From: Terriglobia bacterium
Lineage (GTDB): Bacteria > Acidobacteriota > Terriglobia > 20CM-2-55-15
NCBI GenBank assembly: GCA_963664115.2
Contig: CAXWPJ010000006.1
Location: 303,784-367,783, forward strand
Direction: 5' to 3'
Length of the DNA: 64,000 nucleotides
Of the stretch, positions 6,338 through 55,139 are shown piece by piece. A program made the translations under genes and the position numbers. The notes below the pieces were generated by a model. It did no database searches, had not been told where the DNA came from, and saw only the letters and a program-made list of their open reading frames with translations. Position 1 is the first letter of the stretch. Every line of letters begins with the position of its first letter.

Positions 6338-6399
6338 AACAGTCATTTATCGTTCGGTGACACCCACCAGAGGCGGGTTTGATGAAACTCGTCACGGGT

Positions 6400-35876: not shown

Positions 35877-37106
35877 ATGCGAAAAGTGTTGGCTGCGTCC
35901 GCGATCATGGTCCTCGCGATGGGCTTGGAAGTTCCGGCCCAGGACTGGCCGCAGTTTTTCGGCCCGGAACGGAACGGTGTCTACAGCGGCCCGGAGTTGT
36001 CTGAGACCTGGGGACCGGAGGGTCCCCCGCTGGTCTGGAGGCGGGAGGTCGGTGAAGGGTTCAGTGGGCCCGTTGTCGCGGATGGCCGCGTCATCCTGTT
36101 CCATCGGGTGTCGGATCGTGAGGTTGTCGAAGCACTCGATCCGCAGACAGGAACGAATCTGTGGGAATACAGCTATCCAACGACTTACCGCGACGATTTC
36201 GGTTTTGACGAGGGACCCCGCGCTGTTCCAGTCGTCGCCGACGGTGTGGTGTACACCTTTGGTGCCCAGGGACAATTGCATGCTGTCGAGCTTGAAACGG
36301 GACAGGGGGTCTGGAGTGCGGACACCATGGGGCGCTTCGGCGTGGCCAAGAGTTTTTTTGGCGCCGGCGGATCGCCCTTAGTTGAGGATGGGAGAGTCAT
36401 TGCGAATATCGGCGGTCCCGATGGCGGGGTCGTAGCCTTCGACGCCGGAACCGGAGAGGTTCTCTGGACGGCCACAGAAGATGGCGCGAGTTATTCATCT
36501 CCCGTAGGCGCCACAATTTCAGGGAGCCGCTATGCGGTTTTCATGACGCGCAACGGTCTGGTTGGACTCGATCCTGCGACCGGAGAGGTCAGGTTCAGTC
36601 AACGGTGGCGGTCACGTTCGGCGTCGTCGGTGAACGCCGCGTCACCCGTCGTTGTTGACGATCTGATCTTCGTGTCTGCCGAGTACGGACCCGGTGCGGG
36701 AGTGCTGCGTTGGGATGGGGCACAACTCAACCCGCTGTGGAGCTCTAACGACGCACTCACAAATCATTACGCGACCAGCGTTTACTACGACGGGTACTTG
36801 TATGGATACCATGGCCGTCAGGAGTTCGGGCCTAGCCTCCGCGCTGTTGAATTCACGACTGGAGAGGTTGCGTGGAGCGAAGAGCAGTTTCGCGCGGGCA
36901 GCATCATTCTTGCAGGCGACCGCGTGTTGATTCTCCGGGAGGGCGGCGAACTCGTCCTCGCTCAGGCTTCGCCTGACGCGTTTCAGCCGATTGCACGCGC
37001 GCAACTTCTTCCGGCAACCGTGCGTGCCTACCCCGCACTTGCGAATGGCTTTCTCTACGTCCGGAATGAGACCACGCTCGCTTCGTTCGATCTGGGCCTC
37101 CAGTGA
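35877..37106 (+). CDS. PQQ-binding-like beta-propeller repeat protein
   Basis: Signal peptide, DWPQFFGP, repeated ALD..TG...W blades and SP motifs. Confidence 0.88.
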   Translation: MRKVLAASAIMVLAMGLEVPAQDWPQFFGPERNGVYSGPELSETWGPEGPPLVWRREVGEGFSGPVVADGRVILFHRVSDREVVEALDPQTGTNLWEYSYPTTYRDDFGFDEGPRAVPVVADGVVYTFGAQGQLHAVELETGQGVWSADTMGRFGVAKSFFGAGGSPLVEDGRVIANIGGPDGGVVAFDAGTGEVLWTATEDGASYSSPVGATISGSRYAVFMTRNGLVGLDPATGEVRFSQRWRSRSASSVNAASPVVVDDLIFVSAEYGPGAGVLRWDGAQLNPLWSSNDALTNHYATSVYYDGYLYGYHGRQEFGPSLRAVEFTTGEVAWSEEQFRAGSIILAGDRVLILREGGELVLAQASPDAFQPIARAQLLPATVRAYPALANGFLYVRNETTLASFDLGLQ

Positions 37107-37172
37107 AGAGATGAAGAGCGCAATGTCGTCGGATCGGGTTCTGTCTGCGAAAGGTCGCGAGGAAAGGCAAGA

Positions 37173-37790
37173 ATGTTTCGACCATTTTTAGCGATATTCA
37201 TATTTGTTGTTCCGATGGCCTCGCAGACTCCTGAGGATCCGCAGGTTATCCTCGCCCAGGCTATGAGCGATTTTGAGGCAGGCCGGATCGACGAGAGTGT
37301 TGCGGGATTCGATGCTGTGGCCAGGCTTGTCCCTCGCATCGCCCCTCAGCTCTGGCAACGCGGCATCGCCCTCTACTACGCCGGTCGATACGAGGACTGC
37401 CGGGCCCAGTTCGAATCGCACCGCACCGTGAACCCCAACGACGTCGAAAACGCAGCCTGGCATTTTCTCTGTGTGGCCCGTTCCGAATCTCCCGAAGCAG
37501 CCCGGTCTGCGCTGCTGCCTGTGGGACCCGACCGACGCATCCCGATGGGTGAGATCTACGAAATGTTCAGCGGCGACCTGAGTCCTGCGGAGGTGTTGCG
37601 GGCCGGGGGCGACGTACCCCTGGCACAGTTCTATGCCTATCTCTATGCCGGTCTCTATCTCGAGGCGCTTGGGGACGAGGAAGGCGGGCTTGCCTACATG
37701 CGGACCGCCGCGGAGGATCGATTCAGGGGAGGCGGATACATGCACACCGTTGCCCGGATTCACGCCGGCTTGATCGAGCGCCGGGATTAG
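37173..37790 (+). CDS. TPR / NlpI-like protein
   Basis: LWQRGIALYYAGRY, VNPNDVENAAWHF and FYAYLY.GLY. Confidence 0.8.
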   Translation: MFRPFLAIFIFVVPMASQTPEDPQVILAQAMSDFEAGRIDESVAGFDAVARLVPRIAPQLWQRGIALYYAGRYEDCRAQFESHRTVNPNDVENAAWHFLCVARSESPEAARSALLPVGPDRRIPMGEIYEMFSGDLSPAEVLRAGGDVPLAQFYAYLYAGLYLEALGDEEGGLAYMRTAAEDRFRGGGYMHTVARIHAGLIERRD

Positions 37791-37823
37791 TCCTTACGTC
37801 GCACAGGAGTGCTTCTGTCCGAA

Positions 37824-38732
37824 TTACTCTGACGACGTACACAACTCGGAACGGGCTGCCTCGCAGATCGCCACCACTGCCGGGTGCTGAACATGACGCT
37901 CGACAGAGATCGCGTAGAAGTGCTCGCTGACCTCATCGGTCGACCCGATGGGTTCGACCTGGTACTGTCGCGCAACCTCGTCCGCAATCACCGAAGGCAC
38001 TGTGAAGAATCCCGCACCTGCCTGACCGAAGACTTTGAGCAGTGCGCTGTCCTCGAACTCCCCAATGGTCACCGGTCGAACCTCTAGTGCGCTAAACCAG
38101 CCATCAAGCGCACGACGTAGAACGGCATTGTCACCGGGCAAGAGCACAGGCGCGCCGTCGAGCGATCTCGGAAATTCCGCTCGGAGGTGTCTCGCCAGAT
38201 CACCTCGTGCCATGAATGTGACGCCGCAGGTTCCAAGCTCATGGCTGTAGGCCCGCACACTCACACCGGGCGGAATCGCGGTGTCAGAGAGCACGACATC
38301 GACGTCGTGGACGGCAAGGGCTGCCAGGAGTTTCTCCGGCGGACCCTCGCGGCAGATGATTCGGACCTCCTCATCCAGGTGAAGTGCTGGCTCGATGAGT
38401 CGGTGGGCAACTAGCTTCGGCAAGACATCGGCCACTCCTACCACGAGCCTGAGCGGACGCCCAGTCGACTGTCCCCGAAACGTCTCTACAAGTTCGTGAC
38501 CGACCGAGAAGATTTTGTCGGCATATCCCAGGGCAACGCGACCGGCATCGGTGAGAATTAGGCCCCGGCCGGCGCGGCTGAAAAGCTTCTCTCCGATCGC
38601 CACCTCAAGATCGCGAATCTGCGTGCTGACAGTCTGAGGCTTGAGGTACAACTTTGCGCTGGCCCGCGTGAGATTGCCTTCGTGCGCGACGGCCCAGAAC
38701 AAGCGCAAGTGATGGTAGTTCAGGTTCTCCAT
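37824..38732 (-). CDS. nhaR: LysR-family transcriptional activator NhaR
   Basis: LNYHHLRLFW, VGVADVLPK, EFEDSALLKVFG and YAISVER..HPAV; RBS AAGGAG before ATG 38732; nhaA nearby. Confidence 0.9.
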   Translation of the reverse strand: MENLNYHHLRLFWAVAHEGNLTRASAKLYLKPQTVSTQIRDLEVAIGEKLFSRAGRGLILTDAGRVALGYADKIFSVGHELVETFRGQSTGRPLRLVVGVADVLPKLVAHRLIEPALHLDEEVRIICREGPPEKLLAALAVHDVDVVLSDTAIPPGVSVRAYSHELGTCGVTFMARGDLARHLRAEFPRSLDGAPVLLPGDNAVLRRALDGWFSALEVRPVTIGEFEDSALLKVFGQAGAGFFTVPSVIADEVARQYQVEPIGSTDEVSEHFYAISVERHVQHPAVVAICEAARSELCTSSE

Positions 38733-38783
38733 CGCTCCTTCCTTATATTCGATAATATCTGACAATATACTACATATTATCGA
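38560..38783. repeat. 224-bp direct repeat, copy A (nhaR 5' end plus operator)
   Basis: Matches 40539-40762 with two mismatches, read by eye. Confidence 0.92.
38749..38783. promoter_or_regulatory. Candidate NhaR/LysR operator in the divergent promoter
   Basis: TCGATAATAT-N15-ATATTATCGA perfect inverted repeat in an AT-rich region; one mismatch in the second copy. Confidence 0.55.
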
Positions 38784-38837
38784 CTTGTTCGAACGTGCAG
38801 TCTCTGTTCTGATTTAAGGACCATGGGGGGATCAAAC

Positions 38838-39153
38838 ATGCAGCAACTTGAAGTATCTGCGACCGGCATGGACCTGACCCAAGCCTACTTGCCCGTGTCG
38901 AGCGGCGCATCTGATTCGCACTGGGGACTTATGCGGGGCTGTCGAACGCTTCCACGTCCAGCTTTGCGACGACAACGGTCCGAAGGGCGGCTTAGACGAT
39001 ACGTGTAGCATCCTCGTTCAGCTTGTTGAGATTGAACCCATCGTCGTGCAGCAGATGGATGCCGACATCCGACCTGCTATCGATTGTGCGGCGGCGAGGA
39101 AGCTAGATCGAACGCTCACGGCGATGCTCGACCCTGGGGAGACCATCCAATGA
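38838..39153 (+). pseudogene. Degraded HPF/RaiA-family gene, paralog of 40826-41185
   Basis: Pieces in three frames (MQQLEVSATGMDLT / RVERRI*FALG / VERFHVQLCDDNGPKGGLDDTC...AIDCAAARKL) align to the intact copy; two frameshifts and one stop. Confidence 0.82.
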
Positions 39154-39163
39154 GGTGAAAACC

Positions 39164-39718
39164 ATGAAAGCCATTCTGCCCGCGCTCGACAACTTGCCTA
39201 GCGCGTATCGCGATTCGGCGATTAGCGATCTTCTCGCTTACCACAATCTAGGTATGGCGTATCGTCACCGTCCCTCCTCCCAAGCCAAACTGCTCGTCGG
39301 CATGTGCATGGACTACCGCAAACGGCTTCGGATTCCGGAAGACTTCGCCTACGTCATACGGACAGCCGGGGCCAACTTTCGTGGTCTTGAGTTCCAGATA
39401 TCCTTTGCCGTAGGGGTGGGAGGCGTGCGGGCAATCGCCGTCGTCGGCCACGATCAGTGCCGTATGAACGACCTGGCCGCCCAGCGGGACGCCTTCGTCT
39501 CGGGCTTGATCAAGGCAGGCTGGGAGCGACATGTCGCCGAGTTGCACTTCCAGGAGTGTGCACCCCGATTCGAGATTGGCGGTCCCGTAAAGTTCGCCTG
39601 CGCTCAGGCGCGCCACCTTCGGCAGCAGTATCCAAGAATCACGGTGGCGCCACTGCTGTACAAGCATGGCACCGACAGGCTCTACTTTATCGACGAAGAC
39701 AAAAGTGAGAAGACCTGA
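39164..39718 (+). CDS. Beta-class carbonic anhydrase, paralog 1
   Basis: CMDYR (CxDxR), RTAG and GHDQC (HxxC) zinc ligands. Confidence 0.85.
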   Translation: MKAILPALDNLPSAYRDSAISDLLAYHNLGMAYRHRPSSQAKLLVGMCMDYRKRLRIPEDFAYVIRTAGANFRGLEFQISFAVGVGGVRAIAVVGHDQCRMNDLAAQRDAFVSGLIKAGWERHVAELHFQECAPRFEIGGPVKFACAQARHLRQQYPRITVAPLLYKHGTDRLYFIDEDKSEKT

Positions 39719-39759
39719 CCAATGAGAAGGAGACACAAGGTGAACTTAGGAGGATAGCG

Positions 39760-40191
39760 ATGAACATTCTTCGCCTAGCTCGGGTCCCCGCAATAACAAT
39801 CGAAGCCGATGCCACCGTCGTTGAGGGTATCGGATTGATGCAGCGGGAGAACGTCGGTTGCCTTTTTGTTGTCAAGAACGACCTGCTGGTGGGCGTACTT
39901 AGCGAACGGGACGTCATGCGACGCGTGGTATTTAGCAGCCGGGACCCCAAGACCACGCCCATTCGTCAAGTCATGACCATGCCAGCACGGCAACTTTCTA
40001 GACACGCAACCATCGAAGAAGCGATCCGTACGATGGCTGTGGGTCGAGTACGCCGGTTGCCGATCGTTTGCGACGGCAAGGTCGAGGGCATGGTGTCGCT
40101 CCGGTACTTGCTCCGGGAGAATATATTAGGCCTCACCGAGAGATGCGATTCCCTGATCGCACCGTACTGTGCCGACGGAATAGGGGGATGA
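39760..40191 (+). CDS. CBS-pair domain protein
   Basis: VGVLSERD, VMT, VRRLPIV and GMVS. Confidence 0.88.
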   Translation: MNILRLARVPAITIEADATVVEGIGLMQRENVGCLFVVKNDLLVGVLSERDVMRRVVFSSRDPKTTPIRQVMTMPARQLSRHATIEEAIRTMAVGRVRRLPIVCDGKVEGMVSLRYLLRENILGLTERCDSLIAPYCADGIGG

Positions 40192-40326
40192 CACCAATCC
40201 GGCCTTTATGTGGAGAGCGGTCCGCAAGGAACAGGCCATTAAGAACCATCAATTGCGGACAGGTGGAGTAGGGAAAGGCATCATGTGGGTCACACGAGCC
40301 GCGTCAGTCCCTAGGAGCTCAACACC

Positions 40327-40560
40327 ATGAAGATACCGTTTACAGCGGACCAACAAGAAGCCTTTCTCCGGCATGCGATTGAAGCCCGAGTGTTTCAGAG
40401 CGCCGAAGACGCCCTAGAGCAAGCCCTGGCGCTGTGGGAAGAGCGCGACGGCACCAGAGCGGCGTTATCGCCGTCGGCAGGGGATAGAAGGCCGTCGCAC
40501 TACCTGGGCAAGGTCACCGGATCGTGGCGGAGGTTTCAAGGCCCCGGCCGGCGCGGCTGA
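40327..40560 (+). pseudogene. ParD-like (RHH) antitoxin remnant, no toxin following
   Basis: MKIPFTADQQEAFLRHAIEARVFQSAEDALEQALALWEER resembles a ParD N-terminus; the tail runs into the duplication junction. Confidence 0.5.
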
Positions 40561-40711
40561 AAAGCTTCTCTCCGATCGCCACCTCAAGATCGCGAATCTG
40601 TGTGCTGACAGTCTGAGGCTTGAGGTACAACTTTGCGCTGGCCCGCGTGAGATTGCCTTCGTGCGCGACGGCCCAGAACAAGCGCAAGTGATGGTAGTTC
40701 AGGTTCTCCAT
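40514..40711 (-). pseudogene. nhaR: Truncated nhaR copy (HTH only, 65 aa)
   Basis: First 58 aa identical to NhaR, then ETSATIR*. Confidence 0.88.
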
Positions 40712-40762
40712 CGCTCCTTCCTTATATTCGATAATATCTGACAATATACTACAAATTATCGA
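40539..40762. repeat. 224-bp direct repeat, copy B
   Basis: Near-identical to 38560-38783. Confidence 0.92.
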
Positions 40763-40825
40763 GTAGACCGAATAAATGGATTTGGGTAAAACTTCTATTA
40801 GCACACGTCACGGAGAATCGCACGC

Positions 40826-41185
40826 ATGCATCTTGAATTCTCAGCGAAAGGCCTGAAACTGACCGACACTGCGCGAGGCCATGTCGAGCGGCGCATCCGC
40901 CTCGCTCTGGGGCGCATCTTGGTCCGGGTCGAACGTGTTCACGTGAGGCTTGTCGACGTGAACGGGCCAAAGGGTGGAGTGGACAAGACCTGCCGCATCC
41001 GCGTCCACCTCTTCGGACTCCCCACGGTTGTCGTCGAACAGGCGGACGCAGACCTCCACGCAGCTATCGATCGCGCGGCTGACCGTGTCGGCCGAACCGT
41101 GGCGAGGAAGCTCAAGCAAGCACTCACATCCATGGGCGACGGGAGAGCAAGCGAACCAACGGGGGAGGGACCATCAGCGACATGA
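40826..41185 (+). CDS. HPF/RaiA-family ribosome-associated protein (NhaR-linked type)
   Basis: HVERRIRLAL...V.V.LVDVNGPKGGVDKTCRI...DLHAAIDRAADR. Confidence 0.82.
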   Translation: MHLEFSAKGLKLTDTARGHVERRIRLALGRILVRVERVHVRLVDVNGPKGGVDKTCRIRVHLFGLPTVVVEQADADLHAAIDRAADRVGRTVARKLKQALTSMGDGRASEPTGEGPSAT

Positions 41186-41418
41186 GGCATTCAGACATTG
41201 CGGGAAAGCGGCACGCTTTCCGTGGCAAGCTGCGCAACATCTACTATCCAGGCCCGCACCACTACCTCGTCGCCACGGACCGCATCTCCCCGTTCGACGT
41301 CGTGCGGTCGCGCCTATCCCTGGCAACGGAAGCGGCCCTCACGAGACTTTCGAGCTTCAGGTTCGAGATAACCGCCGAGATCGTGGAACAGACATCGGCC
41401 AGATATACGAAGAGACGC
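41182..41418 (+). pseudogene. Internally deleted SAICAR synthase (purC-like) remnant
   Basis: RGKLRNIY..LVATDRISPFDVV matches the PurC N-terminus; EITAEIVEQTSARY matches the PurC C-terminal helix; the core is missing. Confidence 0.72.
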
Positions 41419-41458
41419 ATCGATGTCTCGTTAAATCGGGACGGGACAGGAGACTGCC

Positions 41459-41773
41459 ATGAAATGCCCAATATGCGAAACCAAAACCTTGCACAAACGC
41501 CATCGAAACGACGTACTGATCGACATCTGCGAGCGCTGTCGCGGCATATGGGTCTACCACAGTGAACTTGAAAAGCTCATCGCCCATCCCCAACAGGAGA
41601 TCGATAAGCACGAACGCTTCTACCAAGAGTCCGAAAGCGCCTACAAACCGGAGCGACCACATGCCGCTGCGCACATCCGACAAGAGGGGCAGTCCACGGC
41701 AAGCCCTAAAAAGGATAAGAAGAAGGGATTCCTCACTGTCTTCGAGATCTTCGGCTGGGGGAAGGGTCAGTAA
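41459..41773 (+). CDS. zf-TFIIB-type zinc-ribbon protein
   Basis: MKCPIC...IDICERCRGIWV..ELEKLI and a C-terminal KKKGFL..IF tail; RBS AGGAG. Confidence 0.85.
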   Translation: MKCPICETKTLHKRHRNDVLIDICERCRGIWVYHSELEKLIAHPQQEIDKHERFYQESESAYKPERPHAAAHIRQEGQSTASPKKDKKKGFLTVFEIFGWGKGQ

Positions 41774-41777
41774 GGAC

Positions 41778-42350
41778 ATGAACAGCACGACCCCACGTCT
41801 GGTGCCGGTGCACGAGCGAAGTGACGTGCCCACGATGTACCGTGACACCGCGATCGCCGATCTGCTCGTCTATCACAACTTGGGTGGTGGGCCCCACCGT
41901 CGTTACACGCAGGCCGATCTGCTCGTCGGTATGTGTATGGACCACCGCTCGCGACTCCGGATCCCTGAGAACTTCGCGTACATCATGCGGAGCGCTGGAG
42001 CCAATTTTCGTGGGCTCGACTTCCAGATGTCCTTTGCGATCACTGTCGGGCGTGTGCGGGCCATCGCCATCATCGGCCATGACCAATGCGGCATGTCCGG
42101 TCTTGCAGCTCAGCGGAGCGCTCTCGTCGAGGGTCTGGTCCATGGTGCGGGCTGGGAGAGACACATTGCCGAGCTCCACTTCGATGAGTACGCACCACGG
42201 TTCGAGATCGGCGACCCCGCGAAATTTGCCCTCGGCCAGGCGCACCACGTTCGGCAACAGTACCCGGGGCTACCGGTGGCTGCGCTGCTCTACCGCCTCG
42301 ACGAGGGGATGCTCCACATCATCGACGCAGGTGAGGAGATGAGGTCATGA
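41778..42350 (+). CDS. Beta-class carbonic anhydrase, paralog 2
   Basis: CMDHR, RSAG and GHDQC; aligns over its full length with paralog 1. Confidence 0.87.
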   Translation: MNSTTPRLVPVHERSDVPTMYRDTAIADLLVYHNLGGGPHRRYTQADLLVGMCMDHRSRLRIPENFAYIMRSAGANFRGLDFQMSFAITVGRVRAIAIIGHDQCGMSGLAAQRSALVEGLVHGAGWERHIAELHFDEYAPRFEIGDPAKFALGQAHHVRQQYPGLPVAALLYRLDEGMLHIIDAGEEMRS

Positions 42351-42676
42351 AGAATGCTCAGATCGTCGAAAGAGAAGCTCGCAATCCACCACCAGACCAC
42401 TACCTCCTCACATATCAAGTAATGCAAAACGCAAATGTACTTGACCCTTTGACTGGCCAGTTGCGAATGGATGAGGAATCACTCCGAACGCTTCATAGGG
42501 CATTGGATGAAAACGAAATCCAATTTCCACCACGCGCCAAGTGGGTTGGCTTCGAAGACTGGGAGGGAGCACCAACTTGGGAAAATGTCTTCATCTTTGT
42601 CCCCGAGAATGCCCAAAGGTACTTGGACCATGTGGTCCGCCGAGTTGCCAAATGGGAGCAAAAACTGAAGTCATAA
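42347..42676 (+). CDS. Hypothetical protein
   Basis: ATGA-coupled to the upstream gene with a GAGG RBS; no recognised family. Confidence 0.55.
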   Translation: MKNAQIVEREARNPPPDHYLLTYQVMQNANVLDPLTGQLRMDEESLRTLHRALDENEIQFPPRAKWVGFEDWEGAPTWENVFIFVPENAQRYLDHVVRRVAKWEQKLKS

Positions 42677-42893
42677 GTCGTTGTAATAATAGTTCGTTAC
42701 TGCTTCGTAATTCATGAAGCCCCGCGGGACATCGAAGGATCGGATACGGACCGGGCCAGACGATGGGATTGGCGAGACAAACCTGGTGGAATCAAGACTC
42801 GGAGGACAAGTTGAGCATCTCTTGGCACATCTTGGCGGGCGAGCAGCCTGCCCTTTGGCTTGAGCTGGAAACCGCCGCAGAAATGGGAGGCGC

Positions 42894-43886
42894 ATGGGTG
42901 ATTTCCTAAGCCTCGATGGTATTCCCCTTTGGGCCAACGGTCTGATCGCGCTCGCGACCATCGCCTTGCTCGGACTCGGCGCACACTGTGTCGTGGAGTC
43001 CGCCGTACGCATCGCCAAGCGATTAGCGGTCTCGGAACTCATCATCGGCCTTACGGTGGTGGCCCTCGGCACATCGGCGCCGGAGTTAGCGGTCACGCTA
43101 ATCGCCGCCTTCGAAGGACACGGCGATATCTCGGTCGGCAACATCGTTGGCTCCAACATCTTCAACCTCGGCTTCATCCTCGGCGGCTGTGCGCTCGTCC
43201 GTGCTATTCCAGTGGAACGCACCATGCTGCGGCGCGACGGCGCGGTTCTCGGGGGAACCTCCTTGTTGCTCATCGGGCTGATCGGATGGGATCTCCGGCT
43301 GGATCGTTACGACGGCGTCGTGCTGTTCGTCTTGCTGGGCGTCTACCTCGGCTACCTGTTCAAGCACCGTCGAGCGGGCGCAGACGACAGTCCCGAAGGA
43401 CACGAACAGGAAGGCCAGAGCGATGTCTCACTGCTGCGGGACAGCGCGCTGCTGATCGTCGGCTTGGTCTGCATCGTCGGAGGCTCCCACATTCTGGTCG
43501 AGTCCGCGACCGTAATCGCTAGGGGCTTCGGCGTGAGTGAGTGGGTCATTGGCGTGACCATCGTCGCCGCCGGGACATCTGCGCCGGAGATGGCCACCAG
43601 CCTGTCGGGCGTCATCAAAGGTCGCTACTCACTGAGCGCCGGCAATCTGGTCGGAAGTGACATATTCAACATGCTCGGGGTTCTAGGACTTGCTGGCATG
43701 CTTCGCCCGGTGGAGATCGATGTCATGGCACGCATCTCCCTCGCCGCGCTCTGCGGGATGGTGTTGGTCGTGCTGTTCTTCATGCGTACTGGCTGGCACG
43801 TGTCACGATTCGAGGGGCTCGCGCTCGTTGCGATCGCGGTGCTTCGGTGGGGCTTCGATTTCTCGCAAGGAAACAGTAACCCATGA
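42894..43886 (+). CDS. Calcium/sodium antiporter (CaCA, YrbG-like)
   Basis: Two alpha repeats: GTSAPE...GNIVGSNIFN and GTSAPE...GNLVGSDIFN. Confidence 0.92.
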   Translation: MGDFLSLDGIPLWANGLIALATIALLGLGAHCVVESAVRIAKRLAVSELIIGLTVVALGTSAPELAVTLIAAFEGHGDISVGNIVGSNIFNLGFILGGCALVRAIPVERTMLRRDGAVLGGTSLLLIGLIGWDLRLDRYDGVVLFVLLGVYLGYLFKHRRAGADDSPEGHEQEGQSDVSLLRDSALLIVGLVCIVGGSHILVESATVIARGFGVSEWVIGVTIVAAGTSAPEMATSLSGVIKGRYSLSAGNLVGSDIFNMLGVLGLAGMLRPVEIDVMARISLAALCGMVLVVLFFMRTGWHVSRFEGLALVAIAVLRWGFDFSQGNSNP

Positions 43887-43962
43887 GCGACTGGACCGAA
43901 CCAGGACTCTGTCACCAACAACTCCTGGATATTGCTTCCATGAGGAATCAGGGAGACGGGCG

Positions 43963-45675
43963 ATGACAGATCTGCCCTTCTTGGGTGAGTTCGTTATCAT
44001 CCTCGCCTCGGCCGTGGTTGCCGTCGTTCTTTTGCGACGTCTTGGAATTCCTTCCATCGCTGGATTCATTGTTGCTGGAGCCCTGGTCGGCCCAAACGCG
44101 CTGGGCCTTGTAGCGGACATTCAGAATGTAGAGATACTCGCCGAATTGGGGGTCGTGCTGTTGCTATTCGGCATCGGCCTCGAACTATCGTTGGAGCGTA
44201 TGCGCGGCCTCTGGAGCGCGATCGCGGTTGGTGGCTCCATCCAGGTTGGCGCGACCATTCTGGTGGTTGTCGGCATCTGTGCTGTGTTCGGTATTAGTAT
44301 CCGCTCAGCAGTGCTCATCGGTTGCATTATTGCGATCTCCAGCACAGCCATCGTACTGCGAGGTTTGTCGGCGCGGGGAGAGCTCGAGGCGCCGCACGGG
44401 CGACTTGCGCTCGGCATTCTCGTTTTTCAGGATCTATGCGTCGTTCCGATGGTCCTCGTCATTCCGTTGCTGGCGAACACGCAGGAAAGCGAGACGAGCC
44501 CGCTTCTGGCGCTATTGACAGCCGTGGGCGTTATCTCTGGAGTGTTGGCGGTGGCCAAGTGGGTGGTCCCCCGCCTATTCGATGTCGTCGCGGCCACGCG
44601 ACAGCGTGACCTGTTCGTCCTCTCCGTCTTCCTGGTTGGTCTAGGGATTGCTTGGGCAGTTTCGCGCGCCGGTGTCTCGCTCGCCTTGGGCGCGTTCCTC
44701 GCAGGATTGGTGGTTGCGAGCGGTAAGTACAGACAGCAGGCGTTCTCCGACCTTCTGCCATTGCGTGAGGTGCTTGCCAGCACTTTTTTCGTCTCCATAG
44801 GCATGCTTCTCGATGTGCGGACTGTGATCCAGAACGCGATCCCCATTCTTGGTCTTTTTCTGGCCATCGTTCTCGGCAAGTTCGCAATTATCTTCCTTAC
44901 CGCCAAGCTCATGAAGCTGCCATTGCGAGTGTGTATCCTAGCCGGTGCCGCCCTCTGTCAGGTGGGCGAGTTCTCGTTTGTCTTGCTCCGTGCAGCTGAT
45001 GGCAGCGGACTGCTTGACCCATTATTTTCTGAATACCTCACGGTGGCTGTAATCCTGTCCATGCTCGGTACGCCGTTCGCACTCTCTCTCGGGCCTCGTT
45101 TGGCCAGCGGCATTGGAAAAGTGAGTTTGGTGAACCGGCTGTTTCGCATTCGTATGGCAGTCGACCTACATGCGGACGAGTCGCTCAGGCATCATGTCAT
45201 CATTGCAGGATACGGCCTGACAGGTCAGTCGATTGCCCGATCACTCGAGGTGCGTGACATTCCTTTCATCATCGTCGATCTCAATATCGACAACGTCAAC
45301 AGCGCAACGCCACAGGCGGCATCGGCCTACTTCGGAGACGTGACGAGCGTAGAGGTCCTGGAGCATGTCGGCGCGCCACGCGCCAGGATGATCGTTCTTT
45401 CGATAAATGACCACGACGCCACAATCCGTGCGATCGCGGCATGCCGTAGTGTTGCACCTGGGCTCCGCATTGTTGCTCGGACCCGTTTCGCTGCTGATGT
45501 TGGTCTCCTGAAAAAAGCAGGAGCAACACACGTCATTGACGTTGAAACTGCGGCCGCTGGCGAGGTCGCCGGTTGTGTCGTGGAACACCTGGGTTCTGAC
45601 GGTGCCACGGAGGACCTGCGTGGTCAAGCGATTCGCGTTTCTGGAGACGGAAATACGGGGCGGAATGATGAGTAG
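43963..45675 (+). CDS. CPA2 (KefB/KefC-like) cation:proton antiporter with TrkA-N domain
   Basis: [39 protein letters not shown] and IAGYGLTG...FGD. Confidence 0.92.
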
Positions 45676-47164
45676 GAAAGACAACGGTCCCGAGAGTTTG
45701 CCGCCCGAAGCGTCCCCCCAAGCCCGCCGCCTTGCGCTCAAACTCTCACGTCCGGTGGAGAAGTTTCTCCATGTGACGGCCGCGAGTGGGATCCTCCTTC
45801 TGGTCATGGCAGTGATCGCCCTTGTCTGGGCAAACTCTCCGTGGGCGTCAACCTACGAGCACCTGCTGCACACTTCCATCTCCTTGGGATTCGGCGAACA
45901 CGTCTTCACGCGAACCGTCCATTTCTGGATCAATGAGATCCTCATGGTGGTCTTCTTCTTTGTCGTGGGTTTGGAGGTTCGGCGAGAGCTGTTCGAAGGT
46001 GAGCTTTCCACGCTCCGGCGTGCTGCGTTGCCCGTAGCCGCAGCGTTCGGGGGGATGCTCGTACCGGCGGCGATCTACATCTCGCTCAATGCCGAGTCTC
46101 CTTCTGTCAGCGGTTGGGGAGTACCAATGGCCACCGACATCGCTTTCGCCGTCGGTGTGCTCGCGTTGCTCGGCCGACGAGTTCCGGTGTCGTTACGTGT
46201 GTTGCTCCTCGCTTTGGCGATCATCGACGACATTGGAGCCATCCTCATCATCGCGCTGTTCTATTCCAACGGAGTCGCGGTGAGTGGTCTCGCGATCGTT
46301 GCGCTTGGGGTCGTGACAGTCGTTGTCATGCAGCGATTCGGTCTGCGGAATCCGTTCATCTATGTTGCACCGGGCATCATGGTTTGGAGCGGAATGCTAC
46401 ACGCCGGAATCCACCCGACGATTGCGGGCGTGATCCTTGGGCTACTCACACCCGTGCGAGCTTGGTTCGGCCATGACGGCTTCCTTGCGGAAACGGAGAA
46501 TTCGCTGGAGAGTTTGCGCAAGAAGGTCGCTTCGGAGAAGGACCCACGCAAGCTCCTACCTGAACTCGCACGAACCAACGTCGCACGCCGTGAAGCGATC
46601 TCGCCGGTAATCCGTATTGAAGCCGCGCTTCATCCGTGGGTCGCCTTCGGGATCATGCCGCTGTTTGCTCTAGCAAACGCAGGCGTTGCCCTTGGCGGCC
46701 TCGGCGAGGGTTTGTCCGAGTCGATGGATGTCATGCTGGGAGTTGGCCTGGGTTTGGTTGTCGGTAAGCCGCTCGGGGTCGTCGCCTTCAGTTGGCTGGC
46801 CGTTCGTCTCGGTCTCGCGTCGTTGCCGCGCGGTGTTTCATGGAGCGGTGTACTCGTTGTTGGCTGTGTCGCCGGCATTGGCTTCACGATGGCGCTGTTC
46901 ATCGGCGCGCTGGCGTTTTCCGATACTTCAACGTTGGCCGTCGCTAAACTTACCGTGCTGGCCGCTTCTATGGTTGCAGGGGCGGTCGGACTTGTCGTGG
47001 GCTACAAATTTCTGCCGCGCGGCCCTTCGAGCGATGTCGGAAGTCGCGCACAGAGGTCTGCGCTCCAGTTCGAAAAAGCGAACACTTTCTTGACAGGCAA
47101 ACCGAGTCGGGATCGACACGGGCTATCTCGTGTTCCCGCCTCTTTCAATGAGGTTCTAAGATGA
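45665..47164 (+). CDS. nhaA: Na+/H+ antiporter NhaA
   Basis: [35 protein letters not shown] and [10 protein letters not shown]. Confidence 0.95.
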
Positions 47165-48180
47165 AAATCAGAGTGCTTGATAACGACATCGAGCTCCCAG
47201 ACTTTGACCCGAAAAAATTCGGGGCGAGGCCGGTTCTGATCATTGCCGCGGTTGTTTTCGGGTTGGCGATGGTCTGGAGCGCCGTGTATCAGATTGCGCC
47301 CGAAGAGGCCGGAGTCGTGCTCCGTCTGGGGCGCTTTGTCCGGACGACGGATCCCGGACTCCGCTTCAAGATCCCATTTCTCGAACAGGTTCAGAAAGTG
47401 CCGGTCCAGCGGCAGCTCAAGCAGGAGTTCGGCTTCCGGACTGTTACCGCGGGAGTTCAGAGTAATTTCACGACCGTCGGCTTGAACGACGAGTCGTTGA
47501 TGTTGACGGGTGACTTGAACGTGGCCGTCGTGGAGTGGATCGTCCAGTACCGTGTGGCCGACGTCTACGACTACCTGTTTAAAGTGCGCAATGTCGAGGA
47601 AACATTCCGTGACATGAATGAAGCCGTCATGCGAGAGGTCGTCGGTGATCGTACGGTTACCGAGGTTCTCACGATCGGAAGGCAGGACATCGAGGTCACT
47701 GCGCAAGTCCGGCTGCAGAGGCTGAGCGATCAGTATGAGAACGGAATCCGGATCGAGCAGGTTGTGTTGCAGGACGTCAATCCGCCGGACCCGGTGAAAC
47801 CTTCCTGGGACGAGGTGAACCAGGCACAGCAGCAACGGGACCAGTTGATCAACGAAGCGCTGACCGACTACAACAGCGTCATCCCCAGAGCCCGGGGTGA
47901 AGCCGAGCAGGCGATTCTTCAGGCGGAAGGGTACGCGGTGAACCGCGTCAATCGTGCAGAGGGTGATGCCGCCCGCTTTATAGCCGTCTATGACGAGTAT
48001 CGCCAGGCTCCTGAAGTGACTCGCCGACGGATGTACCTGGAAACAATGTCGTCCATGATGGCCCGTGTTCCCGGCAAGGTGATCCTCGACAGCAACGCCC
48101 AGGGCATTCTTCCGTTGCTTCCCCTCGATGGAATTACTAACCGGCTCGCCAGCAACTCTCTGAATCAAGGAGGCAACTGA
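47161..48180 (+). CDS. hflK: FtsH modulator HflK (SPFH)
   Basis: [22 protein letters not shown] and [13 protein letters not shown]. Confidence 0.92.
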
Positions 48181-49118
48181 TGAAAGGCATGGCCAAAGCT
48201 CCACTATTGATATCGGCCGGTATCGTTGGATTGATTCTCCTCGGCAGTGGACTCTTTGTCGTGGACGAAACCCAGCAGGTGATCATCACGCAATTCGGCG
48301 ACCCCGTCGGCGAAGCGATCACGACCCCGGGTCTCAAGTTCAAAATACCCTTTATCCAGATGGCCAATTATTTCGACAATCGTTTTCTGGAATGGGACGG
48401 TGAACCGAATCAGGTGCCGACCCGCGACAAGCGGTTCATCTGGGTGGATGCCTATGCACGCTGGAGGATCAGTGACCCCCTGATGTATCTGGAAAGACTC
48501 CGCGGGGATGAGAATACGGCCCAGTCGCGCCTGGACGATATTCTGGACGGCGAGACGCGCAACGCTATTGCCCGCAACGATCTGCTCCAGGTGGTTCGGA
48601 CCAGCAACCGGCAACCCGAGACGGTCGAAGGCGATCAAGAGGAAACCGGAATCCTCGACGAAATCACGACCGGCAGGGCGGACATCTCGGCGGGTATTCG
48701 AGAGACGGCTGCGCCACGGTTGGCCGAACTCGGGCTCGAACTCGTCGATTTTCAGATCAAGCGGATCAATTACGTGGCAGAAGTGCAACAGGATGTATTC
48801 GCGCGAATGATCGCTGAGCGGCAACGAATTGCGCAACAGTACCGTTCAGAAGGTGAAGGAGAAGCAGCGCGCATCCGGGGCGAGAGGGAACGCGACCTCC
48901 AGGCTATCCAGTCGGAAGCCTACCGGCAGGCCGAGGAAGCTCGAGGCGTGGCTGACGCTGACGCCTCGCGCATTTACGCGGATGCCTACAGCCGGGATGG
49001 TGGGTTCTATGAATTCACCAAGAGCATGGAGACCTTCGAGACCGCGATCGATCCCAATACGCTCATGATTCTGACGACGGATAATGCGCTGTTCAAGTAT
49101 CTCAACCAGCCGCAATAA
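48180..49118 (+). CDS. hflC: FtsH modulator HflC (SPFH)
   Basis: ITQFG, PGLKFKIPF, TRDK, RMIAER.RIA..YRSEG and FYEF. Confidence 0.92.
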   Translation: MKGMAKAPLLISAGIVGLILLGSGLFVVDETQQVIITQFGDPVGEAITTPGLKFKIPFIQMANYFDNRFLEWDGEPNQVPTRDKRFIWVDAYARWRISDPLMYLERLRGDENTAQSRLDDILDGETRNAIARNDLLQVVRTSNRQPETVEGDQEETGILDEITTGRADISAGIRETAAPRLAELGLELVDFQIKRINYVAEVQQDVFARMIAERQRIAQQYRSEGEGEAARIRGERERDLQAIQSEAYRQAEEARGVADADASRIYADAYSRDGGFYEFTKSMETFETAIDPNTLMILTTDNALFKYLNQPQ

Positions 49119-49487
49119 GTCGTCGGGTTGGGTTCTGAGTGTGCGGAGGTCTTCTATGGATTAGTTCTAAATCGGCGATTGCCGAAGAGATTGATGTGTC
49201 GAAAGGAGGCGTGGCCGATTCTGGCGGCAGGTGGATCGTGCCCAAAGACAAGCAGATCCATATCATCTGCGGGAAAGTCGTCAACTCACGATTTCATGTA
49301 CTTCACGCCAACCAGCGCATCCTGGGGAGAACCACGCCTTGCTGCGTTGCCAAGATGCTCCAGGTTGGGGAGTTGCTAGTGTCCTTGGCAAACTCATCAT
49401 GGCAGCGTATTGATAGCGACTTCACGACCGAGCTTTGTGGAGAAAGAGACTTTGGGGCGGTAAGTGAGTGTTTGTAGATTCATGTGA

Positions 49488-49928
49488 GTGACATACGTAA
49501 ATGACTCAAGAGGAAGGCAAGTGATGGAGACTGTCGAGGTAAGACGAAAACGCGCGATTGTCCTGTTGCGAAATCGATTCGTTGAAGTGGTTCTCGATGG
49601 TGATGATTATGTCAAGGTTGGTAAGAAAGAGTACCGCGTTCATAAGGACAAGTTGGTCACACTGATGGAGTCGGGCAGACTGGCACCCGACACCATTTTG
49701 CGAATTTCCCGCGAATCTGTGGAACGTCTTGCCTCGGATGTGCTCAATGAACTCGACTCGCGGCTAGAGATTTTCGCGATCATCCCGATAGGGAAGAAAC
49801 CCGGGATCTGGGCTGTCGACTTTGTTGACGAAGAGGGGGGTCATCTAGAGGTTGCGATTGGTCACAACATTGTCGGGATGGACGATCCAGCGATCAGAGC
49901 GCATATTAAGGCGAAGTTGGATCGATGA
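49488..49928 (+). CDS. Hypothetical protein
   Basis: 146-aa ORF with protein-like composition; the start may be ATG 49523. Confidence 0.55.
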   Translation: MTYVNDSRGRQVMETVEVRRKRAIVLLRNRFVEVVLDGDDYVKVGKKEYRVHKDKLVTLMESGRLAPDTILRISRESVERLASDVLNELDSRLEIFAIIPIGKKPGIWAVDFVDEEGGHLEVAIGHNIVGMDDPAIRAHIKAKLDR

Positions 49929-50065
49929 TTACAAACGCTACGGTTCCGCCGCACGGGGATCCTCTCTATGATGAAGCCGGGCGTTGCCTGAACAACCTGT
50001 GACCGTTTGGCACCAGGCCGCCATTCGGACGTTAAGTTGACAATGCCCTATATCTTGATGAAGTG

Positions 50066-50412
50066 ATGTTCAGCATGCTACAGAGAAGAGCCGTCGCCCT
50101 GCTGGTCTTATCGGCCGTGCTGGCCTTCGGTATTCAGTCGGCCCTCGAGGTGTTCCATCCCATCGAGGTAGCCCCGCAAAATCTCTCGCTGCACGACCAT
50201 ATTCAGGTTGGCGACGGTGCGTCCCTTCTCGATTCCAGCCACGCGGACCGCCGAAACCATAAGCATCACTATTGTGCCCACTCGAACGCCCTGGCGTGCC
50301 TTGGCAGACTGGAAACCGTGTTCCAGCGTTCGCACGCGCGGTTGCCGACACCGAAGCCGCCGCTGTGCGCTCCCTGCTTTCGGTCTTCGATCGAGGCCCG
50401 CCCCTCCTCTGA
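50066..50412 (+). other. Putative His-rich leader/arrest-peptide gene (apparent frameshift; RGPP C-terminus)
   Basis: N-terminal hydrophobic segment, then LHDH...HADRRNHKHHYCAH; the -1 frame continues ...SLLSVFDRGPPLL* and stops at 50412. Confidence 0.55.
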
Positions 50413-50483
50413 TTCCAAATTCAGTCCGCTTGATCCGGACACGTGCGTCGGAAGCATTTCTGTATTTGCAATTGGAGGGCCCC

Positions 50484-52321
50484 TTGAAACGTAGTTTCTT
50501 TATTTCTATTCCTATTTATTTGATCCTTGTATGCAGCCTCGCCGGAGGCGCCATCGCGCAGACCAGCGGCGCGATCGAGGGCACCATTACGCTTCCCACT
50601 GGCGATCCGGCCCACCGTGTGACCGTTGTGGTGACCGGATTGGGCCGAACCGTCGAAACCGACGAGGATGGGCGCTACCGATTCGACGACGTGCCGGCCG
50701 GCTTCTATGAAGTGCTGGCGTTCCAGTCGCTGTTGGATGGCGCAGCCGAAGGCGTCGAGGTCACCGGCGGACAGACCCGGACTCTCGACATCATGATGCG
50801 GTTCTCTCCCATTAGGGTGGAGATCACTGTCACAGCGCGAGGCCGCGAAGAAACGACATTCGAAGCCGTTCCATCGGTGACCAGCCTGGACGCGTTCGAT
50901 CTGGCCGAGGCCATGGCGCCCTCTCTCGGTGAGGTGCTGGATGGTCAGTTGGGAGTTTCCAAGCGGAGCTTCGGCTCGGGCAATGCCCGCCCCGTCATCC
51001 GCGGGTTCGACGGCGACCGCATCCTGGTCATGCAGGACAGCATGCCTGTAGGCGCCCTCGGTTCCCAGTCAGGCGACCATTCCGAGCCGGTGGATGTCAG
51101 CAACCTGGAGCGCGTTGAGATCCTGAAGGGACCGGCGACGCTGCTTTACGGAAGCAATGCCATCGGCGGAGTCGTGAATGCGATCAGCAGCCACCAGTCT
51201 TTTCACGACCAGCCACATACGGGTCTCACCGGGCAGGTTTCGTCTTCGGTCGGGAGCGCCAACGGCCAGGCCGGCAGCAGCTTCAACATGCAGTACGGTG
51301 TCGGCAGATGGGCCGTCTGGGCCGGCGGCGGCCAGCGGACCCGTGACTACGACACACCGATCGGGATCGTCAAAGATTCCAGGAGCCGGATCACCAACGG
51401 ATCGGTCGGGTTCGGGTGGTTCGGCGACCGGGCGTTTGCCAGCGTCGGCTACCGCGGTACGGAAGGTCGGAACGGGATTCCGTTCGTCACCACGTTTGAA
51501 AGGGAGGAAGAAGGGGACGGCGGAGAGGAACTCGACGCGGTCAACATCGCGCTGCGCCAGCACACCATCAACTTTGCGATAGGAGTCCGGGATCTGGGTG
51601 CGGCGTTGGAAGAATTTCGGTTGTCGGTCAACTTTTCCGATTACAACCACGATGAGGTGGAGATATTCAAAGGTGGCGATCAGGTAATCGGGACGACATT
51701 CGAAAACCAGCAGCTTTTCTACCGGGGCGTGTTTACTCAGAGAACGCACGGTCGGCTTTCCGGTAGCTTCGGCGTCTCCGGACGGATACGGCAGTTCGAA
51801 GCCACCGGAGAAGAAGCGATTACGCCGCCGGTCGACCAGACGGGTTTTGGAGTATTTACGCTTCAGGACATCGATTTCGAACGCGTCCAGTTACAGTTCG
51901 GTGGACGGGTGGACTACAACCGGTACGAGCCGCAGGTGGGCGGGTTTTCCGACCGGAGTCTGACCGGGTTTTCCGGTGGCATCGGTGCGCGATTCGATCT
52001 GTGGGAGGGAGGCGCGTTCGTCGCGAACTATACGGATTCGTTCCGGAGCCCGGCTCTGGAAGAGCTGTACAATTTCGGTCCGCACCTGGGCAACGTGACG
52101 TTCGAGATCGGGGATCCGAATCTCCGGCGGGAGCGCTCACACGGATTCGACTTCTCGCTTCGCCAGGAGTCTGACCGGGTCCGTGGCCAGGCCAACGTCT
52201 TCTACTACGATATCGACGACTTCGTTTTCCTAGCCCCGACCGGCGCGTTCGTAGACGGACTGACGGAGGCCGAGTATAGCCAGGGTGACGCGCGTTTCCT
52301 CGGGATCGAGCTGAAGCTAGA
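50484..52321 (+). pseudogene. TonB-dependent receptor (ZnuD-like), 5' part, interrupted by IS
   Basis: RBS GGAGG plus TTG; signal peptide; carboxypeptidase-regulatory-like domain; plug RPVIRG..DH..ERVEILKGPATLLYG. Confidence 0.9.
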
Positions 52322-54168
52322 CCCAAAACAAGCGCATAACCAGTCCGCCGAGGCCCAGTTCGCGCCGATAGAATTCGAGGCATAGAATCCCGTTCCCGGA
52401 TGGCCTGTTCCAGGTATCGAGTTTCTGTTGAATCTGTTTCAGTTCAGCCTCGCTGGTGTTGGACGGTTGACAGAAACCGGGACCTCGATCGCCCGGGCTC
52501 AGAGTCATGATCGGGTCAACATCGCAGAGGCTGACGCAACACATCCACCCCGCGGAACAAGACCGGCAACCACCGGTTCCAGGCCAGGATCCGGAACAGA
52601 ATGCGCCGCCCGGTGCGCACGAGTTGGCACGGCACAAGCATGAAAGCGTTCAAGAAGGTTTTGAACTCCATGCGCAGCACGGTTTGCTTCTCAGCCTGAT
52701 ATTTTTGGCCCCAACGTCCGGTTTCGGGAAGCAGCAATGCAAACCACGCTTTCAGTGTCCAGGCCAGTGACGCGATCACCATGTAGGCCCAGTTGCTGGT
52801 CTGATCTCCGACCGGCATCCGCAACGCCTGAACGCCGTTCTTCAACTGCTCAATGAGATTCTCCTGATTGCACCGTTGATTGGCACGCATCACAATCTGG
52901 TCGGCCGGATCCGAACGGTTGGTAATGTAGAAGAAGTACCGGATGTCGTCAAACAACACCTGCTCTCCTTTGGCCACCGACAGATTCTTCCGCACCACGA
53001 CGACACGGTAGTCCCGATCGCAGGCTCCGGGTCGATACCGAAACTCGGCCACATCCTCACCCTGCAAGCGGATATTGTCGAAACCGCGCTGCCGAACGAT
53101 CTCTTCCTTCACGTTGTCGGGACGTTGGCGCGGTTCGGTCGCCACGTCGTATTTCGCGGGCCGTTCCAGGCGCTTCCACTGGCGCGGCTCCAGTTCATCG
53201 GCCCGGGCCTTCAGGTTCGCCATCGCGTCAATCCCGAATATGAAACCCACCTGCTGGTCGTCCCATCCGTCCAGATGCCGGGTCTGGCTGAAGTCCGTGT
53301 CCCCGCGCAGCAGGATCTGGCGAAACCCCGCATGCCGGCACAATGCGATGGCTTGGTCGAACCGGACCGCGGCTCCTTCATGCGACGGCCGGTTGCCGCT
53401 ACGATTGACCAGATACAGCGGTTCGGCGGTGTTGGCCAGCGAGATCATCAGCGGGTGATATCCCCACGTCCCGTCGTAGGCCACGTCCATCCCTTGCTTG
53501 CATTCCCCCGTGGTTTCGGCCAGTGTCCCGTCCGCGTCCAACACCGCTTCTTCGAAAAACGCCGCCGGTTGCTGTCGCCAGACTCCGAGCCGGACTTGAT
53601 TGGTTGCCTCCATCAGACACTCCACGTCGTCGGCCTCGAATCTCCGGCAGAAGTCTCCCGCCGTCGTCGGATCCGGAATCCGTTGCGCTCCCAGCGCATC
53701 CAGATACACCGCATCGTTGCGCCGCAGTTCGATGTCTTCCAGGCACGTTCCTCCGCTCAAGGCGTTGTAGGCGATGTTCAGCACGTGATCCGACTCGTGA
53801 TACGGCAGGTGCCGCTTCAACACATGCACGCCCTTGTCGATGGCTTCGATCAGCCCGGTCCGCCGCGCCACCAGTTGCATCGTCCCGATACCACCAACCG
53901 ATGTGCCCCGCGTCCGCTCTCCCATCTCGTACTGAATGTTGCTCGCCGAAAACATCGGCTCTACCTGATCCGTCCAATGCCGGTCCCCAAGCCGACGTTC
54001 GATTCGCCGCTTGCGGTTCCTCATGTTCTTGCGCGTATAATCGTTCATCTGAAATGCCTCCTTTTCCGAAGAATCTGTTCAAGGTTTTTTTCGCACGGAG
54101 AGGGGGCATTTCGGGTACTTCCGCTCTTATTGCACTATCATTTCCTCGTCAATCACGCTTGTTCAGGG
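52322..54168 (-). mobile_element. IS1380-family insertion sequence (1847 bp) with GCTAGA target duplication
   Basis: Termini CCCAAAACAAGCG and CGCTTGTTCAGGG (11/13 inverted match); GCTAGA at 52316-52321 and 54169-54174; removal restores the receptor frame. Confidence 0.92.
52516..54048 (-). CDS. IS1380-family DDE transposase
   Basis: LDADGT, GYHPL, LLRGD, YFFYITN and R.NQENLIEQLK; 510 aa, intact. Confidence 0.88.
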   Translation of the reverse strand: MNDYTRKNMRNRKRRIERRLGDRHWTDQVEPMFSASNIQYEMGERTRGTSVGGIGTMQLVARRTGLIEAIDKGVHVLKRHLPYHESDHVLNIAYNALSGGTCLEDIELRRNDAVYLDALGAQRIPDPTTAGDFCRRFEADDVECLMEATNQVRLGVWRQQPAAFFEEAVLDADGTLAETTGECKQGMDVAYDGTWGYHPLMISLANTAEPLYLVNRSGNRPSHEGAAVRFDQAIALCRHAGFRQILLRGDTDFSQTRHLDGWDDQQVGFIFGIDAMANLKARADELEPRQWKRLERPAKYDVATEPRQRPDNVKEEIVRQRGFDNIRLQGEDVAEFRYRPGACDRDYRVVVVRKNLSVAKGEQVLFDDIRYFFYITNRSDPADQIVMRANQRCNQENLIEQLKNGVQALRMPVGDQTSNWAYMVIASLAWTLKAWFALLLPETGRWGQKYQAEKQTVLRMEFKTFLNAFMLVPCQLVRTGRRILFRILAWNRWLPVLFRGVDVLRQPLRC

Positions 54169-54174
54169 GCTAGA

Positions 54175-54568: not shown

Positions 54569-54676
54569 GAGAAAAAGACGGCCAAGTACCCTGCAATAAC
54601 GACCTAGGATTCCGGAGCGCGAACCCTCCGCTCGATTGAAGAGATTCACCGCATACCCTTCCTGCCTTTAAGGCCC

Positions 54677-55012: not shown

Positions 55013-55139
55013 ATTGCGTTACCTCCGATTAGCATGGACGCGGGCCCGTCCAATTCCGGGGACTGTCTAGGCACAATTGAGGGCACAAGGGGCCCAGACG
55101 CTCCCGAAAAGTTTCCGTAACTTGCTAGAATTACGATAC

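Follow-up and report, generated by a model that had tools for sequence, protein, structure and literature searches.

The 64,000-nucleotide stretch analysed here (the window), from contig CAXWPJ010000006.1 of a Terriglobia bacterium, contains a gene cluster headed by a NhaR-like LysR regulator, which faces genes for carbonic anhydrases (CAs), ribosome-hibernation-like (HPF-like) proteins, a zinc-ribbon protein, a purC remnant, three classes of cation antiporter and HflKC. The cluster is a strain-level mosaic of known families, and the part of greater interest is a link between NhaR-like regulators and inorganic carbon at the level of the family. With a probability of about 0.58, we read the locus as a mosaic copy of an alkaline-pH and inorganic-carbon-shortage regulon, the regulator of which would activate both predicted promoters at high pH and low CO2. 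It is from Escherichia coli that NhaR has come to be regarded as a sodium sensor, and, to our knowledge, the sensing of bicarbonate shortage and the response to it in non-photosynthetic bacteria are poorly known. In three phyla, 12-20% of the genomes sampled had a NhaR-like regulator; with its readable predicted operator and carbon-linked putative targets, it may provide a functional handle on several unstudied partners (an HPF-like subfamily, zf-TFIIB, baeRF10, a divergent CA subfamily and two unannotated proteins).

In a survey of nhaR-like loci, the window's phylum gave matches in 50 of 401 genomes, the planctomycetes in 39 of 201 and a third phylum in 19 of 93; another 14 loci came from metagenomes, and nhaR was present in 1 of 151 genomes of a verrucomicrobial sample. 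The 115 loci tallied comprised 55 of the 58 matches in the window's phylum (the three weakest being dropped) plus locus L202, 29 of 41 planctomycete matches (for 14, the flank was just 1.5 kb), 19 of 21 third-phylum matches, one verrucomicrobial locus and 10 of the 14 metagenome loci. Neighbours were counted by tblastn between -3.5 and +6.5 kb of nhaR, and at 21 loci the sequence available on the divergent side was shorter than 2 kb. Clustering of open reading frames (ORFs) was rejected for these tallies, being swamped by antisense frames, and the composition-based caller that replaced it misses some genes.

PurK and TsaC use bicarbonate, and PurE, PurC and Ccr act on CO2 or its aminoimidazole ribonucleotide (AIR) adduct. 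One or more of SulP, beta-class CA, SbtA, DabA, PurE, PurK, PurC, TsaC and Ccr stood at 27 of the 115 loci, the same queries matching 0.9-1.3% of random windows in the genome that holds the stretch, and antiporters (CPA, NhaA or CaCA) stood at 13, against 0.5% of such random windows. Because CO2- or bicarbonate-related neighbours occur at 27 loci and antiporters at 13, the neighbour spectrum favours CO2/bicarbonate supply at least as strongly as Na+ export. The supply systems at these loci are unrelated to one another: SulP occurred at 11 loci (six of them with beta-CA), SbtA at three and DabAB at two, SulP, SbtA or DabA being present at 16 in all, and a further system is the CA of the window's type, for which nhaR lay near 3 of the 80 best among 578 stretches encoding a CA relative. 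The window locus itself is without a bicarbonate transporter.

What these loci share appears to be a core of a NhaR-like LysR regulator, a conserved predicted operator and swappable cargo. Besides the supply genes counted above, the cargo consisted of HPF-like genes (39 of 115 loci), TerC (34), baeRF10 and zf-TFIIB (10 each), purE and HtpX (9 each), purK (8), CPA (7), SPFH proteins mostly distant from HflK (6), beta-CA (6), CaCA (4), nhaA (2) and purC (1), with purine genes at nine loci. An earlier reading of the window, made from the sequence alone (the sequence-only reading), had proposed a neighbourhood survey of nhaR-linked HPF, CA, zf-TFIIB and purC homologues, and the recurrence of HPF-like, zf-TFIIB, antiporter, CA and purine genes beside nhaR is indeed far above background. 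Its further proposal, that the full combination forms one system, was not borne out, as no locus carried more than three of the nine window families and nhaR stood at only three of the 80 CA loci; since at most three of the nine occur together at any of the 115 nhaR loci, the 12-gene set is particular to the window's lineage. Most of the window genes come from a real and common cargo pool, met with next to NhaR-like genes in three well-sampled phyla, and hflKC, the CBS-domain protein and a 109-residue ORF do not. In a reciprocal test among planctomycetes, 7 of 201 genomes gave a zf-TFIIB match, which in five of the seven lay no more than about 3 kb from nhaR; in the window's phylum, 1 of 250 genomes gave one, away from nhaR.

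Individual loci show how varied the arrangements are. At L292 (positions 2858-8218, contig C88 of genome G841), nhaR faces purC-tsaC-purE-ccr-sbtA behind a strong predicted operator, all of these genes being linked to CO2 or bicarbonate, and the purC remnant of the window is therefore tied to the same cargo pool. At L275, ccr stands immediately behind nhaR, and at L144 and L156 an isocitrate dehydrogenase gene, which lies outside the carbon-gene count, belongs to the unit facing nhaR, with purE-purK or tsaC. At L245 (4493-11722) and L248, nhaR is followed by a winged-helix gene and then by dabB-dabA-HPF-like-CPA2, nhaR being flanked on its opposite side by baeRF10 and a P-type ATPase. The release-factor-like baeRF10 genes (L120, L135, L137, L042, L307, L308 and others among the 10 loci) in several cases lie directly behind the operator, at the position of the HPF-like gene in other loci. 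A conjugative Pseudomonas plasmid (NZ_CP070507.1; L253, 3969-7873) has nhaR facing raiA-hypothetical-terC-DUF6671-pyrC. In addition, a 421-residue membrane protein without Pfam or NCBIfam match at the cut-offs used, which is a candidate transporter, occurs at L241 (8738-10000), L250, L298 and one more locus (4 of 115), and a 284-residue protein without NCBIfam match at 1e-30 faces nhaR in four related genomes (L301-L304).

Several points weigh against a carbon-shortage regulon. The commonest cargo, HPF-like (39) and TerC (34 of 115), is not carbon-related, and no carbon gene was detected at 88 of the 115 loci, nor nhaR near 77 of the 80 loci of the window's CA subfamily. TsaC and Ccr joined the query set only after being seen at L292. 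The counts are inflated by non-independent kin, five metagenome SulP loci being close relatives and L130/L249, L127/L128 and L245/L248 being near-duplicates, and the background was drawn from one genome that itself has no SulP, SbtA or DabA. The operator was not seen at 8 of 28 carbon loci (the 27 plus L275), including four of the six purE-purK loci of the window's phylum. Moreover, E. coli NhaR, the only characterised member, responds to Na+ according to a table in PMC11495319.

The regulator of the window (37824-38732, reverse strand, 302 residues) scored 229.5 bits with the NhaR hidden Markov model (HMM) NF008284, the cut-off of which is 219, and 52 bits with the CbbR model (cut-off 450), its best HMM being NhaR; it is identical to E. 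coli NhaR at 105 of 298 alignment columns (35%). Glu134, presumably the Na+-affinity residue of E. coli NhaR, could not be mapped with confidence in this alignment and was not used. A quick tree of 100 rows placed the regulator in a 12-member clade (support 97), six of whose 11 other members adjoin SulP, and E. coli NhaR at an open fork, with a long branch. Both the 5' end of nhaR and the region upstream of it are present twice, as a 234-nt repeat of 97% identity, the second copy being a truncated 5' end that encodes the helix-turn-helix only (40539-40711, reverse strand; 59 of 59 residues identical).

Two predicted operators accompany this repeat. The first, at 38748-38793, consists of tandem T-N11-A boxes conserved upstream of the closest homologues, and the second, recovered by matrix scan at 40727-40772, heads the long unit of the locus. 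A matrix built from 15 upstream regions of close homologues, operator 2 among them, picked out just these two as strong sites genome-wide, with scores of 53 and 56. Regulon members at a distance did not emerge from the scan: leaving aside the two sites and the reverse reading of each, the best score was 15.9 against 52-56. At 92 of the 115 upstream regions, a matrix made for the whole family outscored every one of 30 shuffles, but it had been trained on those same regions. Compared by eye, the first box of the operator is similar to the consensus that PMC6307784 gives for E. coli NhaR. From this we infer one regulator with two predicted promoters and a local regulon.

Cells lose CO2 to an alkaline medium, and the steps that depend on bicarbonate (PurK/PurE, TsaC, Ccr) are then short of it. 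In the carbon-shortage regulon proposed here, the NhaR-like protein would likely bind the two near-identical predicted operators and switch on its targets, namely the CAs, the ribosome-hibernation-like protein and the three cation antiporters, when high pH depletes cellular CO2 and bicarbonate. Operator 1 would drive CA1-CBS, and operator 2 would drive the unit from HPF and the purC remnant through zf-TFIIB and CA2 to the hypothetical gene, with probable read-through into CaCA-CPA2-nhaA-hflKC. The CAs might recapture CO2 as bicarbonate, releasing protons, and the antiporters might bring in protons and maintain the Na+ gradient, which in other genomes could serve uptake of the SbtA/SulP type (SbtA and BicA are driven by Na+); the HPF-like protein may park ribosomes meanwhile. 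Na+, pH or a carbon signal are the candidate effectors.

A wider version of this proposal, which we put forward only tentatively and find somewhat doubtful, is that the NhaR family, beyond the enterobacteria, widely serves to sense a shortage of CO2/bicarbonate and so corresponds to cyanobacterial NdhR/CcmR, Na+ sensing in E. coli being a special case. NhaR would then activate whichever carbon pump, CA or bicarbonate-dependent enzyme stands behind its operator, and antiporters, TerC and a dedicated HPF-like protein would be switched on alongside.

It is unlikely, in our view, that the family instead governs a general stress or dormancy regulon (HPF-like, baeRF10, Usp, TerC, HtpX and YccA), in which ribosomes are parked and membrane quality is controlled while carbon genes and antiporters are optional. 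HPF-like or baeRF10 genes at 47 of the 115 loci, TerC at 34 and HtpX at nine agree with such a regulon, as do annotated proteobacterial plasmid loci, where nhaR stands with HPF (4), TerC (2), YccA (2) or HtpX (1) and where none of six has CA or SulP. However, it leaves unexplained both the four unrelated bicarbonate-supply systems and the L292 operon, made only of CO2/bicarbonate-linked genes, and TerC/Alx is induced by alkali in E. coli, which fits the pH reading.

The sequence-only reading had favoured a fixed, multi-layer Na+/alkali tolerance system, Na+-sensed as in E. coli and with HflKC as an integral part, which we think rather improbable. Although the NhaR cut-off is passed, all three antiporter classes are present with the NhaA residues intact, nhaA overlaps hflK at a junction found in independent runs, and HPF-CaCA follows immediately behind nhaR at three loci, no more than three of the nine window families meet at any of the 115 loci, nhaA lies near nhaR at just two of them, and a further nhaA as well as Mrp/Nuo-type genes are present elsewhere in the genome. 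The place given to HflKC in that system was not upheld, hflKC being a recent copy, 99.2% identical, of genes of the host. Least probable is a decaying island put together by insertion-sequence (IS) activity and with little present function, for although the first HPF gene is broken, purC deleted and the nhaR copy truncated, with IS remnants at both ends and nhaR in just 1 of 34 other genomes of the family, the regulator gene, the two operators, the two CAs and all three antiporters have stayed intact and the region hardly varies among runs of three studies.

Compared with known systems, the predicted regulon is like the E. coli NhaR regulon (nhaAR, osmC, pgaABCD) in the HMM and operator resemblances described above and in having nhaA among the predicted targets, but it differs from the E. 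coli nhaA-nhaR operon in that nhaR, instead of lying downstream of nhaA, is divergent from its targets, with nhaA 7 kb away, and in its cargo of CA, HPF-like, zf-TFIIB, purC, CaCA and CPA2 genes. The targets of cyanobacterial NdhR include SbtA, BicA and Na+/H+ antiporters, and the NhaR-like family collects the same kinds of genes. NdhR/CcmR and CmpR are LysR regulators of inorganic-carbon uptake according to PMC11495319; those proteins form another LysR group, however, as judged from the NhaR HMM being best for the window regulator and not from any direct comparison with an NdhR sequence, their effectors are RuBisCO-linked metabolites, and a bicarbonate transporter is missing from the window locus. 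SulP-CA pairs, SbtA and DAB pumps are direct neighbours of many NhaR-like homologues, whereas none is found in the window's genome. DabAB was described as a carbon pump in bioRxiv 10.1101/476713, along with a requirement in air for two LysR genes of H. neapolitanus, which are not called NhaR in the part of that paper that was available. The available text of PMC5596200 merely transfers the role of E. coli NhaR to Nitrospira, and that of PMC11961710 has nhaR as a map position only. A literature search covering titles and the starts of abstracts, with most subscription journals outside it, returned no description of NhaR with CA, SulP, TerC or HPF targets.

With regard to the layout of the locus, the ORF list and HMM scans agree with the sequence-only reading: the named genes are all present in their place and order, co-oriented (on the forward strand) and divergent from nhaR, with start/stop overlaps at HPF/purC, CA2/hypothetical, CPA2/nhaA, nhaA/hflK and hflK/hflC. 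The NCBIfam cut-offs were passed by NhaR, NhaA, HflK, HflC and CaCA, and the Pfam cut-offs by CPA2, the CBS protein, the HPF-like protein and zf-TFIIB. The claim of a single run holds for co-orientation but probably not for transcription, because the genes are interrupted at 40539-40772 by a second nhaR 5' end with its operator, 97% identical to the first, so that they most likely form two transcription units. Positions 40724-46828 lay in one contig piece in all three non-RNA runs compared, which come from three studies, and the nhaA-hflK junction lay within one contig in two of four runs. An assembly artefact as the source of the duplications was rejected, these two stretches each being found on single contigs of independent runs, and the locus region is nearly invariant among runs of the three studies.

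Because an Rfam scan of 36000-52000 gave no matches at E<=1, no known riboswitch is present in that interval. A sigma-70 scan (no promoters) and a terminator scan (11 against 9.7 expected) were both uninformative. The hypothetical gene after CA2 ends at 42676 and CaCA starts at 42894, leaving a 217-nt gap with a hairpin at 42834-42852. Contigs of metatranscriptome run X20, in which strand and level are not readable and the two copies of hflKC or nhaR are not separable, cover parts of nhaR, CPA2, nhaA and hflKC and were not used as evidence.

Both CAs are beta-class and stay below the PF00484 gathering cut-off (22 and 23.3 bits against 25.7). CA1 (39164-39718; PF00484 E 2e-4) is 62% identical to CA2 and keeps the motifs C-x-D-x-R and H-x-x-C. 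In CA2 (41778-42350, 190 residues), which has the zinc motif, C53, D55, H101 and C104 are invariant and R57 is near-invariant among 58 homologues, and the Foldseek matches listed for its AlphaFold model (predicted local distance difference test score 92) are all enzymes of the beta-CA fold (probability 1.0, TM-score 0.4-0.56, identity 12-22%). As COS and CS2 hydrolases are among these matches and have the same fold, CO2 is only the inferred substrate of CA2. Of the three CA loci with nhaR, three have CPA2, two have HPF and none has purC, zf-TFIIB or hflK; one of the nhaR-CA-CPA2 loci is L009, to the CPA2 of which the window CPA2 is 62% identical. The HPF and CA pairs are older paralogues, the repeated HPF/CA stretches being 72-85% and 73% identical in DNA.

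The first HPF-like gene (38838-39153) is a pseudogene with frameshifts, an in-frame stop and a 21-nt deletion relative to the intact copy; three runs have one extra base at 38883, with which it keeps the stop and the second frameshift. The intact protein (40826-41185, 119 residues) resembles HPF/RaiA (YfiA) in its S30AE domain (PF02482, 42.9 against 23.7 bits) and in its match to solved HPF chains (E 5e-6), but differs in falling below the TIGR00741 equivalog cut-off (27.7 against 40.9 bits), and it represents a distinct subfamily linked to nhaR, with a putative function. The earlier description of a purC remnant (41182-41410) stands and can be made more exact: about 61 N-terminal codons are fused in frame to a C-terminal piece by an internal deletion, the ORF extending to 41565. 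Since the N-terminus is joined in frame to the C-terminal piece, the place between HPF and the zf-TFIIB zinc-ribbon gene (41459-41773, PF13453) was most likely once occupied by a complete purC. Among the remaining small genes are a tandem CBS-domain protein (39760-40191, PF00571), a 77-residue ORF that runs into the nhaR fragment (40327-40560, no family above cut-off) and the 109-residue hypothetical protein (42347-42676), which has no Pfam or NCBIfam match, a single relative (32% identical) among 1.84 billion representatives, and Atlas matches of 0.89-0.91 with low recognition.

The antiporters are a YrbG-type calcium/sodium antiporter (CaCA, 42894-43886, TIGR00367), a KefB/C-like CPA2 cation/proton antiporter with a TrkA-N domain (43963-45675, PF00999 and PF02254) and the NhaA Na+/H+ antiporter (45665-47164, TIGR00773). 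The equivalents of D133, D163, D164 and K300, which we take to be the key residues of NhaA, are all retained, and the final approximately 25 codons of nhaA are hflK leader sequence, 47091-47200 being 89% identical to the hflK leader on contig C5. The copied segment that follows (47087-49119; hflK 47161-48180, TIGR01933, and hflC 48180-49118, TIGR01932) matches C5:145531-147564 over 2034 nt at 99.2%. Four congeners have one hflKC match each (84-94%), and contig depth about doubles over the segment. Judged from these sequences, hflKC was copied recently from genes of the host itself and is most likely a passenger.

By comparative sequence, the locus is a recently inserted, mosaic, partly duplicated and partly decaying gene island. 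It forms the left 11 kb of an insertion of about 17 kb (37813-55139) between a TPR gene and tRNA-Arg(cct), which is absent from the closest relative, G002; this genome of the same genus is syntenic up to 37812 and resumes at 55140, with about 190 bases in between. The genomic-island character thus shows in absence from the syntenic site of a relative and in adjoining tRNA and IS ends. The left junction is an IS-end remnant (37816-37841, forward strand), presumably IS3-like, with 32 genomic matches at up to three mismatches, several inspected copies of which stand just after a transposase ORF; nhaR owes its final codons and its stop to this remnant. A 31-nt match to contig C9, considered as an attachment (att) site, was rejected, being this IS end with its 32 copies. 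No integrase of its own and no att repeats were noticed in the ORF lists, at which no HMM scan for integrases was aimed. To the right of hflC lie short IS remnants (49237-49438) with many genomic copies, one of them within an ORF that we take to be IS630-like. nhaR was not found in any of the four same-genus genomes searched, and among 34 other genomes of the family nhaR and CA each occur in one.

Several minor observations concern the surroundings of the insertion. At the right edge of the locus, two of four runs have 11 other bases in place of the IS remnant at 49232-49325, which is strain variation. A small His-rich membrane ORF and a TonB-dependent receptor lie within the insertion at 50063-52385, and a paralogous pair (66%) stands on contig C10 near the genome's other nhaA. 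The tRNA-Arg(cct) gene occupies 55140-55213, and 36 nt of its 3' end are repeated 1 kb downstream at 56148-56183; the same arrangement is found on contig C2, and G002 carries its own insert there. Finally, beside an IS end at L002 (7990-8580, contig C9 of G000) there is, by eye, a partial and apparently frameshifted second nuoI-like copy, with an intact copy about 6 kb away.

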